From NCBI GenBank assembly GCA_050015075.1, contig JBEKCB010000001.1, forward strand, positions 160,001 to 224,000: DNA of 64,000 nt, written 5' to 3'. Below the pieces are notes generated by a model. It was not told the origin of the DNA. It saw nothing but the letters and a program-made list of their open reading frames with translations, and searched no databases. A program made the translations under genes and the position numbers. Positions within the stretch are counted from its first letter, which is position 1, and the number at the start of each line of letters is the position of its first letter. The DNA comes from Candidatus Brocadiia bacterium (lineage in GTDB: Bacteria > Planctomycetota > Brocadiia > CAIUPP01). Shown here one piece after another: positions 4,262-12,115 of this stretch.

Positions 4262-4876
4262 ATGGAGATGCGCAAGACCGCGGCGATGGCGGCGTGCGGA
4301 TTGCTGGTCGCGTGCCTGGCCGGATGCAGGAGTTCGGCCCCGGCCGTTGCGGCGGAGCCGATGGCGGTGACCACGAGCCCGGACGAGCCCAAGTGGGTTT
4401 CGGAGGGCGCGGGCGCATTCCCTGAAGACGCCGGCAGGGCGTTTTACGGCGTCGGCATCGCCGGGGCCAACCGCTTCCCGGCGGATTCGTTCATGTTGCG
4501 CAAGACCGCCGCGCAACACGGGCGCCTGGAAGTCGCCGGACAGCTCCGGACCATGGTCGCGTCGGTGTTCATGGACTATGCCGCGGCCTGCTTCATTCCG
4601 GGGATGAAGCAGGACGAAATGGACAGCATGAGCGAGAACGTGCAGGAGTCCGTCTCGGAGGCGGTGCTCCTGGGCGCGGAGCCGACCGCCTCGTGGAAGG
4701 ACCCGCAGACCGGCGCGATGTACGTGCTCATCAAGCTCAGCATGGACGACGTAGCCAAGCAGATCCGTGAAAACATCATCGCGGCCGAGGACGGCGAGCT
4801 CAACATGGATGCCACCGCGGCACACCAGGCGCTGGACGGCATCATCGAGAAGAACCGCCAGCGGCCGGTCAAATAA
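4262..4876 (+). CDS. Lipoprotein, LPP20-like
   Basis: Lipobox LAGC; PKWV...AFYGVG...A pattern typical of LPP20-type lipoproteins. Confidence 0.7.
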   Translation: MEMRKTAAMAACGLLVACLAGCRSSAPAVAAEPMAVTTSPDEPKWVSEGAGAFPEDAGRAFYGVGIAGANRFPADSFMLRKTAAQHGRLEVAGQLRTMVASVFMDYAAACFIPGMKQDEMDSMSENVQESVSEAVLLGAEPTASWKDPQTGAMYVLIKLSMDDVAKQIRENIIAAEDGELNMDATAAHQALDGIIEKNRQRPVK

Positions 4877-5027
4877 TTGCCGAAGGCCGATTGCTGATTG
4901 CCGAATGATGTGGAAGGAAGAATGACGATTGATGGGCGATCAGGGCGTTTTCAGCCCGATTCGCCCACCCTTCTTCATTCACTCCTTCAACATCATTCGG
5001 CAATCGGCGTTCGGCCTTCGGCATTAT
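4875..5027. repeat. Long hairpin (about 65-bp arms, 7-nt units such as TTGCCGA); empty twin of the 8019-8524 cassette
   Basis: Arms 4876-4939 and 4961-5025 are near reverse complements; 4896-4928 matches 8038-8070 at 31/33 nt; the right arm overlaps the pilT 3' end. Confidence 0.9.
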
Positions 5028-6099
5028 CTTTTTGTGTCTGGTGGCGCTGGGCGAACATCTTCGGGTCGGTGCAGTAGGTCAGCGCGGTGTCGTAGCTGAT
5101 CTCGCCCTGCTCGTAGAGCGCCATCAGGCAGGAATCCATGGACTGCATTCCCTCGCGCACGCCGAACTGCATGACGTTGACGAGCTGGTGGAACTCGTGG
5201 TCGCGGATGTGGGTGCGGGCGGCGGTGTTGATGATGAGCACCTCGCAGGCGAGGATGCGGCGGGTCTTGTCGGCCGAGGGGACCAGCCGCTGGGCGACGA
5301 TCCCGTGCAGGCAGTTGGCCAGTTGCGAGATGACCTGCGCCTGCTGCGTGGCGGGGAAGACGGACATGATGCGCTCCATCGTCTGGAGCGAGTTGGGCGT
5401 GTGCAGCGTGGCGATGACCAGGTGGCCGGTCTCGGCGGCGGTGAGCGCGGTGGCGGTCGTCTCGTAGTCGCGCATCTCGCCCACGCAGATCACGTCCGGG
5501 TTCTGGCGCAGCACGTGGATCAGCGCGGAGGAGAACGACTTCACGTCGGTGTAGAGTTCCTGCTGGATGATGATCGCCTTCTTGCGCTCGTGGACGTACT
5601 CGATCGGGTCCTCGATGGTGATGATCTTGCAGCGGCGCTCGCTGTTGATCAGGTCAATCATGTAGTTAAGCGTGGTGGTCTTGCCGGAGCCGGTCGGGCC
5701 GGTGACCAGGACCAGCCCGCTGGGGAAGCGGGTGAACCGGTCCACCGCCTCGGGCAGGGCGAGCTGCGCGCGCGATTTGATCTCCTTGTTGCACATGCGG
5801 ATGGCCAGTTCCGGGTTGCCGCCGTGGTAATAGACCGAGACGCGCATGCGGCCGTAGTCCTCGGAAAAGACCGAGCAGCAGAGTTGCCACTCGCGCTCGA
5901 AGGTCTTGATCTGCTCCTCGTTCAGCAGGCCGTAGACGAGGCGCTTGGTGTCCTCGCGCGAGAGCGGCGGCGCGCTGGCGAGGATGATCTCGCCGTTGAT
6001 GCGGAAGGTCGGCGGCAGCCCGGCGACGATGTGAATGTCCGAGGCCTCCGTCTTGCGCGCGAGCCGGAAAACGCGGGCCATATCCTCGGAGATCGGCAT
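4993..6099 (-). CDS. pilT: PilT/PilU family type IV pilus retraction-type ATPase
   Basis: Walker A GPTGSGKTTT, TIEDPIEY, LRQNPDVICVGEMRD, His box AAETGHLVIATLH. Confidence 0.92.
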   Translation of the reverse strand: MPISEDMARVFRLARKTEASDIHIVAGLPPTFRINGEIILASAPPLSREDTKRLVYGLLNEEQIKTFEREWQLCCSVFSEDYGRMRVSVYYHGGNPELAIRMCNKEIKSRAQLALPEAVDRFTRFPSGLVLVTGPTGSGKTTTLNYMIDLINSERRCKIITIEDPIEYVHERKKAIIIQQELYTDVKSFSSALIHVLRQNPDVICVGEMRDYETTATALTAAETGHLVIATLHTPNSLQTMERIMSVFPATQQAQVISQLANCLHGIVAQRLVPSADKTRRILACEVLIINTAARTHIRDHEFHQLVNVMQFGVREGMQSMDSCLMALYEQGEISYDTALTYCTDPKMFAQRHQTQKDNAEGRTPIAE

Positions 6100-6100
6100 G

Positions 6101-6880
6101 CTATTCCCTCTTGGGCTTTCGCAGGAAGTTCTGGACGCGCGAGAGCAGGCCGCGGTTCTGGAAACGGTTCAGGGCCTCGCGCGCCGGCGGCCAGTTCGGC
6201 CGCAGCGTCAGGCATTGCGAGAGCGTCATCGCCGTCTCGGGGAATCCGAGCGCCGCCTGGCAGCGGCCGAGCTCGAGCCACGCGAGCGCGGACCCGGGCA
6301 GCAAGCCCGCCGCCTTGCGCAGGTATCCGAGCGCCGTCGCGCAGTGGCCCGCGCGCAGCAGCGTGCGGCCGGCTTCCAGCTCCACTCGGGGTGACGCGTT
6401 CCCGGCGGCCACGGCGTTGCTCACGCAGTGCGCCGCCGTCGCGCTCCGGCGTTCGAGCAGCACCTCCGCGCGCGCGAGCCAGACGTACGACGAGCAGCCC
6501 TTCTGCGAGAGCGCGTTGTCCGTGTACGCCATCGCCTTCTCCAGGTGGCCGGTGCGGCTCGAGGCGACCGCCTTCGCGGCCAGCAGGTCCGGGTGCTCCG
6601 GGTAGTACTCGAGCGCCTTGTCTGCCCAGAGGAGCGCCTCCTCGTATTCGGCCAGCTCGATCAGCATCCGCACCTGGCCGAACCAGCCCTCGTACTCGGC
6701 CGGGTTGTGCTCGAGCGCCCGCGAATAGTTCCGCAGCGCCAGCTCGAAATCGCCGGCCAGGTACAGCTTCTCCGCCTGCTCCAGGAAGTATCCCGCGCTG
6801 CGGATCGGCGTGCCGTCCGCGCCGGCCTTGACCGGGCGGGATTTCGCGTCGCCGAACTCCAGGTTCCCGAAACGGCTCAT
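6101..6880 (-). CDS. Tetratricopeptide repeat protein
   Basis: Repeated A..Y..AL...P helical units; the start MSRFGNLEF overlaps the upstream stop (ATGA). Confidence 0.85.
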   Translation of the reverse strand: MSRFGNLEFGDAKSRPVKAGADGTPIRSAGYFLEQAEKLYLAGDFELALRNYSRALEHNPAEYEGWFGQVRMLIELAEYEEALLWADKALEYYPEHPDLLAAKAVASSRTGHLEKAMAYTDNALSQKGCSSYVWLARAEVLLERRSATAAHCVSNAVAAGNASPRVELEAGRTLLRAGHCATALGYLRKAAGLLPGSALAWLELGRCQAALGFPETAMTLSQCLTLRPNWPPAREALNRFQNRGLLSRVQNFLRKPKRE

Positions 6881-8013
6881 TCGAACTCTTTCAAAAAACC
6901 ACGCTTCCAGAACGGGGACCAGCGCATCACGCCGCGCGCCAGCACGTCCTCGCGGCGGTAAACGCAGTTGCCGGCGGCCACTTCGGGGGTAACTTGGACC
7001 CCGTGCACCTGCGCGCGCCACTCCATAGTAACAAAATATTCGTCTTTTCCAAGTCCCAGCGAGGCGGACTGGCCTCGCAACGAGGCCGAGAGCGGGAATT
7101 GCCGGACGTCGAGCGCGCTGCCGTTGACGATGAAACCCGCCTGCGTCACCCCCACGCGATCGCCCGGCAGCGCGATGAGCTGACCGACCATCTCGCCCGC
7201 GTAGCTGCCGGGCATCCCTGTTCCGCCGTCCGCGGCGAGCAATTCGCGGACGTGGACCAGGACCAGGTCGCCTCGCTTGAGCGTCAGCGGCTCCAGGTCC
7301 GCCGGCAGGAAATGACAGAGGATGACATCGCCCCTCGCGACCCGGTCCTCCGGGACCGTGACGCCCGCGACGCCGACGGTGAAGCCGACCACGCGCTGGA
7401 CCTGACCGTATGCCGCGTAAAGCAGGATGACGAGGAAACCGATGCCGCAGAGCCGCCAGCCCACCTTCTCGAGCGCGGTCATCTGATCCTTGAACCGCTT
7501 CGTGGCGACCACGGCGTCCATCGCGATCCACGCATGGAGCACGAAGGCGCAGGCCATCGAGGCCGCGCCGAGGCTCTGCCCGAAGAACAGGATGCCCATC
7601 ACGAGCGAGACGAGCCAGGAGATGACGTAGCTGGAGATCGCGCCGAACTGGTGCCGAAGCGCGTGCGCCAGGCCCGGCACGATCGAGAGCGCCAGCGCGA
7701 CGGCCGCATCATGGAGCGCAAGCCAAAGCTCACGCCAGCGCGGCTCGTTCGCCGCACGCGACGGGCCCGGCAAGCCGAGGCGTCCGAAGGCGGAGGCGGT
7801 GCGATCGCCAGAGCGCCGGGCGAGTCCTTCGGCCGCGCGGAGCGCGCTGTAACGGCGCATCCGGCGCGCGACCTGCCGGAACGGCTTCTTCCAGGCCGGC
7901 GCCCGCGGCGGGTGCACTTCCACCGCGCCGGCCTTCGCTTCCAGCAGCGACCCGCAGCGGAAGCAAGCGGCCTGGCCGGGCATGTTCTCAAATTGGCAGC
8001 GAGGACACTGCAC
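6877..8013 (-). CDS. Zinc-ribbon + multi-TM + signal peptidase I (S26)-like domain protein, catalytic residues apparently absent
   Basis: CPRC...CFRC N-terminus; 3-4 hydrophobic segments; S26-like boxes RGDVIL, KRGDLVLV, LIALPGDRV...FIVNG, DEYFV; no GSMxPT serine, and KR replaced by GQ. Confidence 0.7.
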   Translation of the reverse strand: MQCPRCQFENMPGQAACFRCGSLLEAKAGAVEVHPPRAPAWKKPFRQVARRMRRYSALRAAEGLARRSGDRTASAFGRLGLPGPSRAANEPRWRELWLALHDAAVALALSIVPGLAHALRHQFGAISSYVISWLVSLVMGILFFGQSLGAASMACAFVLHAWIAMDAVVATKRFKDQMTALEKVGWRLCGIGFLVILLYAAYGQVQRVVGFTVGVAGVTVPEDRVARGDVILCHFLPADLEPLTLKRGDLVLVHVRELLAADGGTGMPGSYAGEMVGQLIALPGDRVGVTQAGFIVNGSALDVRQFPLSASLRGQSASLGLGKDEYFVTMEWRAQVHGVQVTPEVAAGNCVYRREDVLARGVMRWSPFWKRGFLKEFE

Positions 8014-8018
8014 CTTTG

Positions 8019-8524
8019 TTTCCGAATGGCGAATGCCGATTGCCGAGTGATGAGGAAGGAAGAATGACGAATGGTCCTATGCCTTGGGGGCTTTCAGCCT
8101 GTTCTCCGCGGTTTTTCGGGATTGCACCATGATCGCGACGATCTCTTCGGCCTCTTGCCACAAGGGAGCGACCCGTTCGCGCCGCAGGAGCCGGCCTTCC
8201 ATGATGAGCTCCAGCCAGAAGGCGGACTCATCGGCCTCTTCGATCACCGTGCCGAGTTTGGCGATGAACTCGCTCTTGGACCGCGCGCGACAGGCCGCGC
8301 GGTAATTCGCGCCGACGGACGTCCCCGCGTCCGCCAACTGCTGGCTGACCACGCGGCCTTTCACCGTAAGCGGAATGGCATCAACGAGATTCAGTATGCG
8401 AAGAGCAAATTGCTTGGTTCGCTCCTTCAAGTCGCGTTTGTCCAAGGAAACCTCCTTCTCCTGCCGACCATTCGTCCTTCAACCATTCCACAGAATTCGG
8501 CATTCGCCATTCGGCAATCGGAAA
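8019..8524. mobile_element. Hairpin cassette: about 58-bp inverted arms of 7-nt units enclosing a four-helix-bundle gene
   Basis: Arms 8019-8076 and 8466-8524 are about 80% reverse-complementary by eye, with a perfect inner gacgaatggtc/gaccattcgtc pair and outer tttccga/tcggaaa pair; mobility is inferred, not shown. Confidence 0.55.
8077..8445 (-). CDS. Four helix bundle protein (TIGR02436 / 23S rRNA IVP / bAvd-like family)
   Basis: DLKERTKQFALRI...QLADAGTSVGANYRAACRARSKSEFIAKLGTVIEEADESAFWLEL; TTG start with AAGGAGG RBS. Confidence 0.93.
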   Translation of the reverse strand: MDKRDLKERTKQFALRILNLVDAIPLTVKGRVVSQQLADAGTSVGANYRAACRARSKSEFIAKLGTVIEEADESAFWLELIMEGRLLRRERVAPLWQEAEEIVAIMVQSRKTAENRLKAPKA

Positions 8525-8731
8525 TTATTTACCCTGCTTCTGCTCCACCCGTATCGCCGCCTTCTCCTCCGGCTCGTAGTATTCGCTCGTGAGCTGCTGC
8601 GACTTGACCTTGCCGACGACTTCGGCCAGGAAGGCGCCGAGCTTCGTGCAGGCCTTGCCTTTGTAGCCCTTGATGTGGACCTTCACTTCGCCGCTCTTGC
8701 TGATGCTGATCTCGACATCGCGTTGCGGCAT
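8525..8731 (-). CDS. DUF2997-like small protein
   Basis: VEISISKSGEVKVHIKGYKGKAC...LTSEYY pattern; follows a DUF1257-like gene. Confidence 0.8.
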   Translation of the reverse strand: MPQRDVEISISKSGEVKVHIKGYKGKACTKLGAFLAEVVGKVKSQQLTSEYYEPEEKAAIRVEQKQGK

Positions 8732-8734
8732 GGC

Positions 8735-9220
8735 TCAGCCCTCCCACTGGCGGACGCGGATGTTCACCGTCTCGTCCTTCGCGCGCTCTTCGCTCATCAC
8801 CTGGAATCCCTTCGCCTTCAACTCGGTCATCACGCGGTTGTACACGAAGCACTGCGTCATGCGCTCGGTGAACCGTTCCGCGAACGCCCGGAGTTCGGCC
8901 TTCGTTTTGCCCATGCCCGAGGCGCAGACCACGCAGCGGCCGCGCGCGTCGCGCTTCACGCGGACCTCGACGCCCTCTTTGCCCTGCAGGACGATCTGCT
9001 GCTCCGTGCGGACGTTCTCGAGGACCTCGCTGTTCTTCACTTCGACCTCGACCGAGTTGCGAGCCGCGACTTTTTCCTCCTGCTCGGCCTCCGCGATCTC
9101 TTCCTTGGCCGCGGACCGGACGGTCAGCCCCAGCGCGACCGCCGCGCCGGCCGCGGCGGCGGAGATCGCCGTCCACCCGCCGCCGACGATCAGCGGCGTC
9201 AGGATCAATACTGCGCTCAT
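8735..9220 (-). CDS. DUF1257 (Ycf35)-like protein with hydrophobic N-terminus
   Basis: C-terminal Q..VY..V..EL...GF....E......I..RV..W pattern; AGGAGG RBS; lies between the AAA and DUF2997-like genes. Confidence 0.7.
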   Translation of the reverse strand: MSAVLILTPLIVGGGWTAISAAAAGAAVALGLTVRSAAKEEIAEAEQEEKVAARNSVEVEVKNSEVLENVRTEQQIVLQGKEGVEVRVKRDARGRCVVCASGMGKTKAELRAFAERFTERMTQCFVYNRVMTELKAKGFQVMSEERAKDETVNIRVRQWEG

Positions 9221-9270
9221 GGCTGCGCCTCCTAGTAAGACGAAACACCTGAAAAGGCAGCCCGATAATT

Positions 9271-9425
9271 CACCACCAAGACACCAAGGCACAAAGAGAC
9301 AACGGCTTCCACCACGGAATACACGGAGCACACCGAATGACTTTCCTAAACAGCTTCAGTGTCTTCCGTGTGTTCCGTGGTTGCAATATCAGTTGGCGTT
9401 TTGGGCGCCTTGGTGCCTTGGTGGT
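9271..9425. repeat. Nested inverted repeats: an 8-nt-unit element containing a 9-nt-unit element
   Basis: Outer caccaccaagacaccaaggcacaaag ... ttgggcgccttggtgccttggtggt; inner accacggaatacacggagcacaccgaa (9311) ... ttcagtgtcttccgtgtgttccgtggt (9381). Confidence 0.88.
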
Positions 9426-9436
9426 CCATGCGGCGT

Positions 9437-11122
9437 TCACATTTCCAGTTTCCGTTTTCCCTGCGCCGTCTCGATCCCGGCGGCGTCGGTCGTGGCGGGG
9501 CGGGCGCGGCCATCGGCCCAGCGGCGCAGCTCGGCGATGTCCTCGCTCATCGTCTTCGAGAGCGGCACGCTGGCGCGCAGGCTCTTCACCAGCGCCTCGG
9601 TCGTCAGGTCCTTCTTCTCGTAATAGACGTCGAAGAGCGCGCTGACGATGCTCTCCTCGATCTCCGCGCCGCTGAACCCGAGCGACGCGTCGGCCAGCTC
9701 GTCGAGGTCGAACTTCGCCGGGTCGCGTTTCCGTTTCAGGAGATGGATCGAGAAAATCTCCCGCCGCTCGGCCGCCGCGGGCAGGTCAATGAAGAAGATC
9801 TCGTCGAACCGGCCCTTGCGCAGCAGCTCCGGCGGCAACTGCGTCACGTCGTTGGCCGTCGCCACCACGAAGACCGGCGCGGTCTTTTCGGAGAGCCAGG
9901 TCAGGAACGTGCCGAACACGCGCGCCGAGGTGCCGCCGTCGGTCGAGCCGCCGCTGCCGCGCGACCCGCGGAAGGCCTTGTCAATCTCGTCCACCCACAG
10001 GATCGCCGGCGCGACCGACTCGGCGACGCGGATGGCGCGCCGCACGTTCTCCTCCGACGAGCCGACCAGGCTGCCGAAGACGCGGCCCACGTCGAACCGC
10101 AGCAGCGGCAGGCGCCAGAACTGGCTGACCGCCTTCGCGAGCAGGCTTTTGCCGCAGCCCTGAACGCCCAGGAGCAGAATGCCCTTCGGCGCGGCCAGCC
10201 CGAACGCCCGCGCCTCGTCGCGGAACGCGATCGAGCGTTTCTTCAGCCACTCCTTCAGCGCGTCCACCCCGCCGACCGTCCGCAGGTCCTCCGCCGAATC
10301 GTAGTACTCCAGCAGCCCGCTCTTGCGGATGACCTGCTTCTTCTCGCCGAAGATCACCTCCACGCACCGCTCGTCGAGCCCGCCGCGCATCACCAGCGTT
10401 TTGGCGAGCACGTTCTCCGCCTCGGCCAGCGTCAGGCCGAGGAGCGAATGGACGACCTTCTCGCGCCCGGCGGGCGTCAGACCCAGCTTGATCTTCGGGT
10501 TCCCCTTGACCTCCACGGCGATGCGGTCGAGCAGCTCGTGGAAATCCGGCGCGCGCGGCAGGTCGAAATCCACCACCGTCACGTCCTTCTCCAGCTCGGG
10601 CGGGATCTCCAGCATCGGCGAGACGAGCAGGATCGTCTTGTAGCTGTTCTTGAGGAACGCGGCGATCTCGCGCAGGCGGCGGATGACCGCCATGTTCGAG
10701 CGCGCCAGGAACGGGTGGAAGTCCTTGAAGATGTAGATCGCCGGGTCAAGCTGCTCGACGACGCGGTCGAGCGCGACGAGCGGGTCCTGCGTCGCGGTGT
10801 CGCGATGCTTCTGCGACTGGATCGAAGTGCCGCCCGGCACCAGCCCGGTGGTGATGGACCACTCGAAGATCTTCTTGTCGCGCTGCGCGGAGAGCGCCGT
10901 CACCTGCGCGAGCACGCGCCCTTCTTCCCAGGTGAGCACGTAGATCAGCGGATAGCGCGCGCGGATGAGCACGTCGAGTTCCGACAGCCGCGCCCGCACG
11001 CCTTCCGGGCGCTTGCCCTGAGCCGCATCGAAGGGCGCGGCCGGTCGGGCCGGCGCGGGCGGCGCGACGGAGGCCGGACGCGCCCTGGGCGCTTCAGCGG
11101 GCCTGGGCGCCTCGGGAGTCAT
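9437..11122 (-). CDS. AAA+ ATPase, Ycf46-like (degenerate N-terminal module plus active AAA domain)
   Basis: Walker A GVQGCGKS, Walker [26 protein letters not shown]; N-terminal [10 protein letters not shown] and IFKDFHPF. Confidence 0.9.
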
Positions 11123-11288
11123 TTTTCGATTTCCCCTTTCTTCGCTTGACGAGCACCGGGTTGTTCGGATCGAGCGCCTGGCACACGTCCAGCATCGCCT
11201 CGTCCGCCTCGGCGATATACACCCGGCCGTCCGGGCGGATGCGGATTTCCAGGTCGCCGGGCCTGCGTTTGCCGGGTGCGCGGCTCAT
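11094..11288 (-). CDS. Small hypothetical protein (64 aa)
   Basis: ATGA overlap with the radical SAM stop and overlap with the AAA start; DLEIRIRPDGRVYI beta-hairpin-like segment. Confidence 0.7.
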   Translation of the reverse strand: MSRAPGKRRPGDLEIRIRPDGRVYIAEADEAMLDVCQALDPNNPVLVKRRKGKSKNDSRGAQAR

Positions 11289-12115
11289 TGGATCATCCTC
11301 AGATCGAGCGCCCGGGCGCGGTCGAACGCGGCCTTGAATTCGAGGTCCCGCAGGAACTCCGCCGGCGCGTTGCGCGCCTCCGGCGGCGGCATGTACTCGC
11401 CGCGCAGGCTCAATTTCACCTGCGGGATATTCTCCTTAAGCCACCGCAGCACCGGCTCCCGGCAGCACTCCGCGTGCCCGGGCAGCACCAGGTGCCGCAC
11501 GATCAGGTCGGCGGAGCCCTTCGCGAACAGCAGGTTGCGCCGGACCGTCTCGAGGTAGTCGTCCACCCCGAGCAGCTCTTTCGCGCACTTCGCGCTGCCG
11601 CACTTGAAATCGGCCAGGTAGACGTCCACGACGCCGTCGAGGAGCCGGCCGCATTCTTCGGAGAAATACATGTTCGAGTTCCAGACGACGCGCAGCTTCG
11701 AGCGGATCGGGGCGATCAGCTCGAGCAGAGCGCAGAGGCTGACGCTCGGCTCGCCGCCGAGGAAGTTCAACGTGCGCGCGCCCGCGCGGAGGCGTTCGAG
11801 GATGCGCGCGCGCGTCTTCGGCAAATCCATCTCGGCGACCTCCAGCGGCGCCTCGTTCCACTCGTTCACCAGGCAGAACTCGCAGCGCAGGTTGCAGCCG
11901 GTGAGGAACAGCATGTGCGACGGGATCAGCTCCGACTCCTCGTGGTAGTACAGCGCCTCGCGGAAGCAGTGAGCCGAGTCGCCCAGGCCGCAGAAGCCTT
12001 TCTCCCCGCGCGTCCGGTCCACGCGGCAGTCGCGCGGGCACAGGGTGCAGCGCTCCAGCATGCGCCGCGCCTCCTCCGCGTGCTTTTCGACTTCCGCATC
12101 CGCGATCCGCTTCAC
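11285..12115 (-). CDS. Radical SAM protein, PflX-like
   Basis: N-terminal CTLCPRDCRVDR...GFCG; CX3CX2C (CNLRCEFC); GGEP, WNSNMY, DVYLADFK, IVRHLVLPGH. Confidence 0.9.
   Translation of the reverse strand: MKRIADAEVEKHAEEARRMLERCTLCPRDCRVDRTRGEKGFCGLGDSAHCFREALYYHEESELIPSHMLFLTGCNLRCEFCLVNEWNEAPLEVAEMDLPKTRARILERLRAGARTLNFLGGEPSVSLCALLELIAPIRSKLRVVWNSNMYFSEECGRLLDGVVDVYLADFKCGSAKCAKELLGVDDYLETVRRNLLFAKGSADLIVRHLVLPGHAECCREPVLRWLKENIPQVKLSLRGEYMPPPEARNAPAEFLRDLEFKAAFDRARALDLRMIQ

Follow-up and report, generated by a model that had tools for sequence, protein, structure and literature searches.

In the genome of a Candidatus Brocadiia bacterium, a gene for a small four-helix-bundle protein lies between inverted arms made of heptameric repeats at the junction of two operon genes. 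This cassette is real, inserted and widespread, a unit of the type of the rRNA intervening sequences (IVSs) that lives in operons. The window (the whole 64,000-nt stretch of DNA analysed) and its relatives provide evidence for cognate gene-repeat pairs and for an exchange of elements at fixed junctions. Our preferred reading, to which we give a probability of about one half, is that the system resembles the REPtrons: the protein would bind its own periodic arms, and gene-bearing and gene-free units would turn over as DNA, with enzymes provided in trans.

On the minus strand the DUF2997 stop codon (TAA, 8525-8527) is followed by the 59-nt arm, 20 nt, the gene, the 58-nt arm, 5 nt and the GTG at 8013 (Table 1). 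The sequence-only reading had stated that the arms enclose only a ribosome-binding site (RBS) and the 122-aa gene, adjoining the DUF2997 stop at one end and lying 5 nt from the next start at the other, and this is confirmed. GTG 8013 as the downstream start is backed by the M-x-C..C N-terminus of homologues at compact junctions. The outer heptamers of the arm read in register ATTTCCG ATTGCCG AATGGCG AATGCCG AATTCTG, and the inner, purine-rich part consists of degenerate GAATG units. The two arms are complementary at 47 of 59 positions, with a pair score of 68 (random mean 15.8, maximum 38) that was reached by none of 20,000 pairs of genome windows at the same spacing. The hairpin proposed from the letters was recovered by folding a 526-nt transcript, in which the arms form the closing stem (z = -4.35; 0/100 shuffles equally stable). 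A function of heptamers as suppliers of stop codons in three frames does not work for the unit of the cassette, which contains no stop triplet. A scan of 7900-9500 for promoters and terminators gave nothing beyond chance, and 7000-9500 contains no long direct repeat that could be a template or variable repeat, differing at adenines, of a diversity-generating retroelement (DGR).

Table 1. Positions in the window of the cassette, its flanking genes and a gene-free hairpin of the same repeat family
Feature	Positions	Strand	Remarks
5' arm, 59 nt	8466..8524	-	five ATTGCCG/AATGCCG-type heptamers, then purine-rich inner part; starts one base past the DUF2997 stop
Shine-Dalgarno-like AAGGAGG	8451..8457	-	5 nt ahead of the TTG start, in the loop beside the stem; putative RBS
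Four-helix-bundle gene, 122 aa, TIGR02436/PF05635	8077..8445	-	TTG start, TAG at 8079-8077
3' arm, 58 nt	8019..8076	-	complementary to 5' arm; first base directly after the gene's TAG
5-nt spacer from 3' arm to GTG start of next gene	8014..8018	-
Upstream host gene DUF2997, 68 aa	8525..8731	-	outside the cassette
Downstream host gene, 378 aa	6877..8013	-	N-terminal CxxC..CxxC; weak Peptidase_S26 match below cut-off; outside the cassette
Gene-free hairpin, 147 nt, arms of the same heptamer family	4877..5023	.	between two convergent genes

The host operon is conserved (4993-12115, minus strand); it encodes a radical SAM protein, an AAA ATPase, a DUF1257-like protein, DUF2997, a Cys-rich/S26-like membrane protein, a TPR protein and PilT, and its gene order is the same in G010, a class-level relative of the window's genome (G000). 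The description of this operon as otherwise tightly packed is true in part, as three further junctions within 7 kb hold repeat hairpins too (4877-5023, 9248-9436 and 2345-2454). The hairpins at 1215-1339 and 9248-9436 are built of 8-9-nt units; the latter has homologues at other junctions (contigs C17 and C27), and in place of the former G001, a congener of the same genus, has a different element, which also supplies the last codons of the gene.

The protein scores 74.1 bits against TIGR02436 (cut-off 24) and 48.1 bits against PF05635 (cut-off 33.8), and its pI is 9.7. Its predicted model (pLDDT 94.7) has four helices and is closest to 2RLD and 2GSC (TM 0.8-0.9 to 2RLD), followed by the DGR protein Avd (4DWL, 8UB7) at TM 0.73-0.80, a weak Foldseek E of 0.04-0.09 and 14% identity; the model comparison thus bears out the fold shared with Avd that had been suggested. 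2RLD has five chains, 2RLD and 2GSC are pentameric, and a homopentamer is reported for a Xanthomonas structure, as cited in PMC4990558. The protein matches only TIGR02436 and PF05635 and its fold is a helix bundle; no known transposase or HUH-tyrosine transposase (RAYT/TIRYT) was recognised in it, and profile and fold searches found no GIY-YIG nuclease domain. Over ten pairs of five orthologues dN/dS is 0.08-0.16, so the gene evolves under purifying selection. Its dS against G001 is high, at 0.44, while 13 neighbour genes have 0.05-0.19.

At the same place G001 carries the cassette, with a protein 88% identical and a 45-nt palindrome nested in the 3' arm; G010 has the same operon and the cassette is absent. 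A survey of the junction found 80 metagenome loci with the DUF2997 protein. In 56 of them the junction is compact, only 2-14 nt separating the upstream stop from the first Cys codon of the following gene; of the other 24, nine were too short to score, four had no Cys-rich gene, five had a four-helix-bundle gene and six something else. The five gene-bearing loci, two of them identical to the window, are all among nine loci at 85-100% DUF2997 identity, and no four-helix-bundle gene occurs at this junction in the other 71. Wherever the gene is present at the DUF2997 junction, it sits inside the arms, and the 5' arm is conserved in five orthologous cassettes. In the same clade, L286 and L287 have kept the outer arms and lost the gene, L288 has decayed arms around an unrelated 106-aa ORF, and the sequence of L284 ends within the arm. 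The ORF of L288 (334-654), in the loop of orthologous arms, has an RBS and two hydrophobic stretches; Pfam gave no match for it, and a search of four genomes did not find it. Two distant loci (L291 and L315) hold other heptamer elements at this same junction, and no close empty allele was present among the 80 loci.

The ancestor of one small clade therefore evidently acquired gene and arms at the DUF2997 junction and passed them on, and some descendants evidently kept the arms and lost or replaced the gene. The comparison of orthologous operons that had been suggested thus supports the view of the cassette as an inserted, IVS-like unit with its gene in a hairpin, by its presence in one clade and by the compact homologues. 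It is not a fresh and clean insertion, however: the unit is inherited within a clade whose members vary in the content of the arms and in the opening two codons of the downstream gene. Clade inheritance, low dN/dS and the states of L286, L287 and L288 make it an old, stable insertion, with a gene that is maintained and a loop that can lose its contents or take up new ones. In many of the loci L292-L361 the compact spacer, including the last base of the stop codon, resembles a single ATT-type unit; such a spacer may mark a target or scar, or may simply be rich in A and T.

The arms accompany the protein family far beyond this clade. Among relatives from many phyla (79 loci, 77 with full flanks), period-7 arrays were found upstream in 68/77, downstream in 69/77 and on both sides in 62/77, against 3% of control windows, and any other period in at most 3; the family is thus enriched for periodic inverted arms, as had been suggested. 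In 63 relatives the inverted match lies above the 99th percentile of the 2,984 controls, and in 53 of the 77 the gene's own arm pair ranks in the top tenth of all pairings. Arms contain about 4-5 units and still flank the gene in different phyla, where the proteins are 53-67% identical. The 3' array lies within the translated end of the gene in 32/77 relatives; an earlier count in which half of the relatives (39/76) lacked a 3' arm was an artefact of anchoring at the stop codon, the arm being often inside the end of the ORF. In 71 of 75 relatives a sense-strand ORF stops no more than 200 nt upstream, and in 54 of 63 the array starts at most 11 nt from the upstream stop. Long antisense frames are present in 33/75. 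Of the 79 loci, 12 were flagged for short flanking ORFs, and an Rfam scan of ten of these gave no rRNA and one tRNA. The ATT-type unit occurs in 55/68 relatives and in 44/189 arrays of G000, a comparison in which the register rule favours this pattern.

In G000, for which our own hexamer-score script called 3,839 genes with approximate starts, there are 220 period-7 arrays in 176 clusters and only three genes of the family; other periods give 47, 46, 31 and 28 arrays (4, 5, 11 and 13, respectively), 144 (8) and 89 (10). The unit of the cassette occurs at 25 sites of this genome, including the hairpin at 4877-5023, and gene-free 147-nt copies containing it are found there and on two other contigs. 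G001 has seven TIGR02436 genes with seven different units (five heptamers, two hexamers), each of which has 4-49 sites in G000 and no site in the reversed control. Of the seven genes, one is shared with G000 and one swapped, three have no counterpart at the orthologous site, and two gave an ambiguous comparison. Each paralogue thus evidently has its own repeat unit, which is also scattered gene-free at other junctions. Single arms show no strong bias of polarity relative to transcription (68 vs 51), in a count in which one family carried the reverse 5'/3' label.

The length of the unit follows the protein subfamily. Period 7 is found upstream in 70/77 members of the cassette protein's subfamily, period 6 in 19/30 loci found with a DHEKL-type protein, and period 9 in 12/27 upstream and 20/27 downstream of the TIGR04258 type (3/30 loci had no core match). 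On a quick tree of 69 rows the period changes 6 times against a shuffled mean of 34, the groups having been sampled as three clades. A fourth type (L102, L097, L100) also has heptamers, and a search with the L102-type subfamily gave one match in 201 genomes, too small a number for a count of periods. A unit for each paralogue and a period set by subfamily indirectly support recognition by the protein of its own arms, a pattern that shared descent can explain as well.

Junctions also evidently exchange one element for another. After the gene that we take to be a Tad prepilin peptidase, G000, G001 and G002 each have their own four-helix-bundle cassette; the cassette proteins are 50-53% identical and each has a different unit, whereas G000 and G001 share 92% and 87% identity in the proteins on either side. 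At this junction G003 has a gene-free hairpin. Further along the operon, another junction is clean in G003; it is occupied by a cassette in G002 and by gene-free hairpins in G000 and G001. Where the window has a gene-free heptamer hairpin at 2345-2454, G001 carries a GxxExxY gene (TIGR04256) with repeat arms on both sides; in this counterpart (L008, G001:C5, about 10955-11837) the last ~15 bases of the upstream gene occur twice.

For a count of such swaps, 58 sites of three G001 units were taken, of which four could not be mapped and one was the second arm of the cassette described here. In the 53 that were scored, the classifier found in G000 the same family at 38, another element at 9 and none at 6, and inspection by eye 36, 12 and 5. 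Elements occupy 402 of 3,773 background junctions (10.7%), or 378 of the 2,264 with a gap of at least 50 nt (16.7%), so that 9 of 15 changed sites compare with 10.7-16.7% of junctions. This large excess is inflated, because a site chosen for its element in one genome is by that choice a permissive one. The ends of changed sites are ragged and take in the last or first codons of the flanking genes, and no clear case of target duplication was seen at them between the congeners. The earlier proposal that the cassette spreads as a unit gains support from these exchanges at orthologous junctions, as far as turnover as a unit is concerned.

To the insertion, inheritance, emptying and swapping of units, and to the pattern of one unit per paralogue, all established by these comparisons, the REPtron-like reading adds inferred steps as to binding, the role of the pentamer and the route of movement. 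The pentameric ring would bind the single-stranded or hairpin form of its own unit, repeated about 4-5 times per arm, and such binding could couple expression of the protein to the stem beside its RBS; the protein would also act in trans on gene-free copies. Movement would occur as DNA, through repaired breaks or gene conversion among dispersed arms, with enzymes of the host or of a nuclease cassette in trans. Surviving copies would be those at stop codons, as arms can provide or accommodate a stop, a start and a few codons; on the mRNA, the stem would return the upstream stop and the downstream start to within about 5 nt. RNase III may cut this stem, which we take as a side effect. Several points count against this reading. 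Arrays maintained by slippage keep their period by descent alone, and three subfamilies make only three independent comparisons; swapped sites differ by several codons at either gene end, as they would if homologous recombination had brought in the entire junction from a relative; the search for an enzyme, a target duplication and exact ends of the cassette found none; and this copy is old and stable, with a high dS.

It is fairly unlikely, in our judgement, that the cassette works instead at the level of mRNA, as an IVS transferred to an operon, in which RNase III would cut the stem without religation, split the transcript and free the gene as a separate RNA, the protein being a chaperone of the stem RNA. 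The build is that of the Coxiella IVS, with heptameric repeats and cut by RNase III in vitro (PMC4990558), an RNase III gene is present in 5/5 genomes searched, the stem has ~45 pairs with 88% of cells paired over the five orthologues, and the upstream gene is nearly always co-directional in relatives, as counted above. Against it, mismatches in the arms show no excess of G-U over A-C (86 vs 69, p 0.20) and the sense strand is the more stable in just 29/63, which gives no strand bias by a weak test; covariation over five orthologues, also a weak test, is not above shuffles (365/500); the 3' array often lies in the translated gene end; and swapping is left unexplained. The one RNA run that holds part of the stretch (share 0.12) is available as contigs only, and one of these, of 221 nt, is identical to 8192-8412; its contigs contain no joint spanning the cassette, a weak test in that they show neither ends nor level. 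A joint of 8294-8399 in one contig, with a short side of 35 nt and 80% likeness allowed, probably comes from a homologue of another organism. Nothing here favours an RNA-specific role, cleavage being compatible with the data, and the suggestion that the cassette is excised or processed as RNA found no support in these tests of strand bias, covariation and joints, all of them weak. Splicing or circularisation out of the mRNA, with the compact junction restored, is very improbable: the base of the stem does leave 5 nt between stop and start, much as in compact homologues, but no ribozyme or RNA family of Rfam matches at the cassette (two chance-level microRNA matches fall on the gene-free hairpin only), the RNA contigs hold no such joint, and known IVSs are cut without religation. 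No rRNA match was found in 4500-10000.

That gene and repeats have no functional link, the arms being ordinary dispersed tandem repeats kept by slippage and conversion and the gene a co-inherited one with an unrelated host function, seems to us unlikely. Such a view accommodates the great excess of period-7 arrays over family genes in the genome, a conservation of period that requires no protein, the unrelated GxxExxY genes with similar arms (period 8-10) and the one cassette with an unrelated ORF; it fits poorly with arms that persist around the gene across phyla, with paralogues of one genome that do not share a dominant unit, and with the preponderance of the ATT-type unit in relatives over G000 arrays, subject to the register rule. 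Retro-mobility, in which the Avd-like protein would load the arm-bounded RNA on a reverse transcriptase in trans and the cDNA would integrate at stop-codon junctions, is more doubtful still. The structural match to Avd, the homology of PF05635 and Avd noted in PMC10053308 and the co-directional placement speak for it; on the other side, no reverse transcriptase was found among the eight neighbouring proteins scanned, PF00078 was not found in G001 and G002 (91% and 94% complete, with 7 and 11 family matches, respectively), its sole match in G000 is on another contig (C17), and the stems lack strand asymmetry.

Among known systems, the helix 45 IVS of Coxiella burnetii (S23p), as described in PMC4990558, has an ORF of the same protein family in the loop of its terminal stem, a similar size (428-444 nt, 506 in the cassette) and heptameric repeats, there in the 5' part. 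Unlike it, the cassette lies between protein-coding genes, has many gene-free copies, and has a strong RBS and a gene under purifying selection, whereas the Coxiella ORF is described as decaying. REPtrons, TIRtrons and REPINs with their RAYT/TIRYT proteins (PMC3733652, PMC3686654, PMC3116915) are alike, in what these papers describe, in that the gene lies between inverted repeats of its own class, each gene having one such class; doublets and singlets of the repeats are dispersed as hairpins without the gene, and one orthologous site can hold different classes (cf. 'orthoswitch'). The cassette differs in having no HUH/tyrosine transposase and a fold without known catalytic activity, in arms of tandem heptamers and not GTAG/CGTC-tagged palindromes, and in that at one junction the protein is exchanged along with the arms. 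The Ssn GIY-YIG nucleases (PMC11893778) are likewise encoded by small genes with hairpin-repeat flanks (SRM/NTS) whose repeats are abundant elsewhere, and the nuclease is reported to recognise its flanking repeats as ssDNA; our protein, a candidate for recognising its arms, has no GIY-YIG domain and a fold without known nuclease activity. With DGR Avd the predicted four-helix-bundle fold and basic character are shared, and the low identity and the lack of an adjacent reverse transcriptase set the two apart. The TAACTGA repeats of Beggiatoaceae (PMC4679880) are likewise tandem heptamers found between genes, close to starts and stops, and the paper treats them as direct repeats whose origin is unknown; its main text describes intergenic heptamers without this gene and contains none of the terms 'S23', 'intervening' and 'four helix'. 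REPtron-type and Ssn systems are thus the closest working models, but their defining enzymes are absent here. A literature search that covered main texts and few subscription papers found no paper describing these cassettes outside rRNA, none on TIGR02436 with four helix bundle, and for PF05635 only the DGR paper PMC10053308.

A large family of unknown function, annotated as '23S rRNA intervening-sequence protein', gains in its own arms a concrete candidate ligand, with other paralogues of other units and periods as built-in specificity controls. The cassette ties together three open questions: the origin of ORF-bearing IVSs, the excess of intergenic heptamers in bacteria and the origin of DGR Avd. 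More tentatively, and with less confidence than we place in the REPtron-like reading, we propose a class of transposase-free mobile cassettes in which a ring-shaped Avd-like protein would read a repeat of subfamily-set length (6, 7 or 9 nt) and paralogue-private sequence, and would drive or license the spread of gene-free hairpins and the replacement of older hairpins at stop-codon junctions; rRNA IVSs would be copies landed in rRNA, the bacterial heptamer excess their footprint, and DGR Avd a recruit. The series of junctions, compact, gene-bearing, emptied, re-loaded and swapped, provides natural alleles for studies of movement without transposase.

Some further elements were observed beside the cassettes. 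A palindrome of 30-45 nt is inserted inside ATTGCCG arms (L127, L128 and the 3' arm of L005), in L127 exactly between two units; its copies in G000 include C5:109061, C5:182043 and C29:8285, and 6 of 9 counted copies are followed by an ATTGCCG-type unit. In G068:C1 there are 21 matches to the hexamer-type protein, many equal in score and with an internal TGA, which are possibly carried by a multi-copy element. The GxxExxY genes of five genomes (L374-L385) lie between inverted arms of period 8, 9 or 10, and these units are a parallel kind of cassette with a nuclease-like gene, presumably of nuclease fold. The loop of the 147-nt gene-free element has opposite orientations in G000 (C9:28849-28995) and L132 (G001:C93), as if inverted between the arms. 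Finally, in L102 (G001:C25) a small hairpin is present as two direct copies with the gene between them, while G000 (C18:58250) has one copy and no gene, the pattern expected from recombination between hairpin copies.
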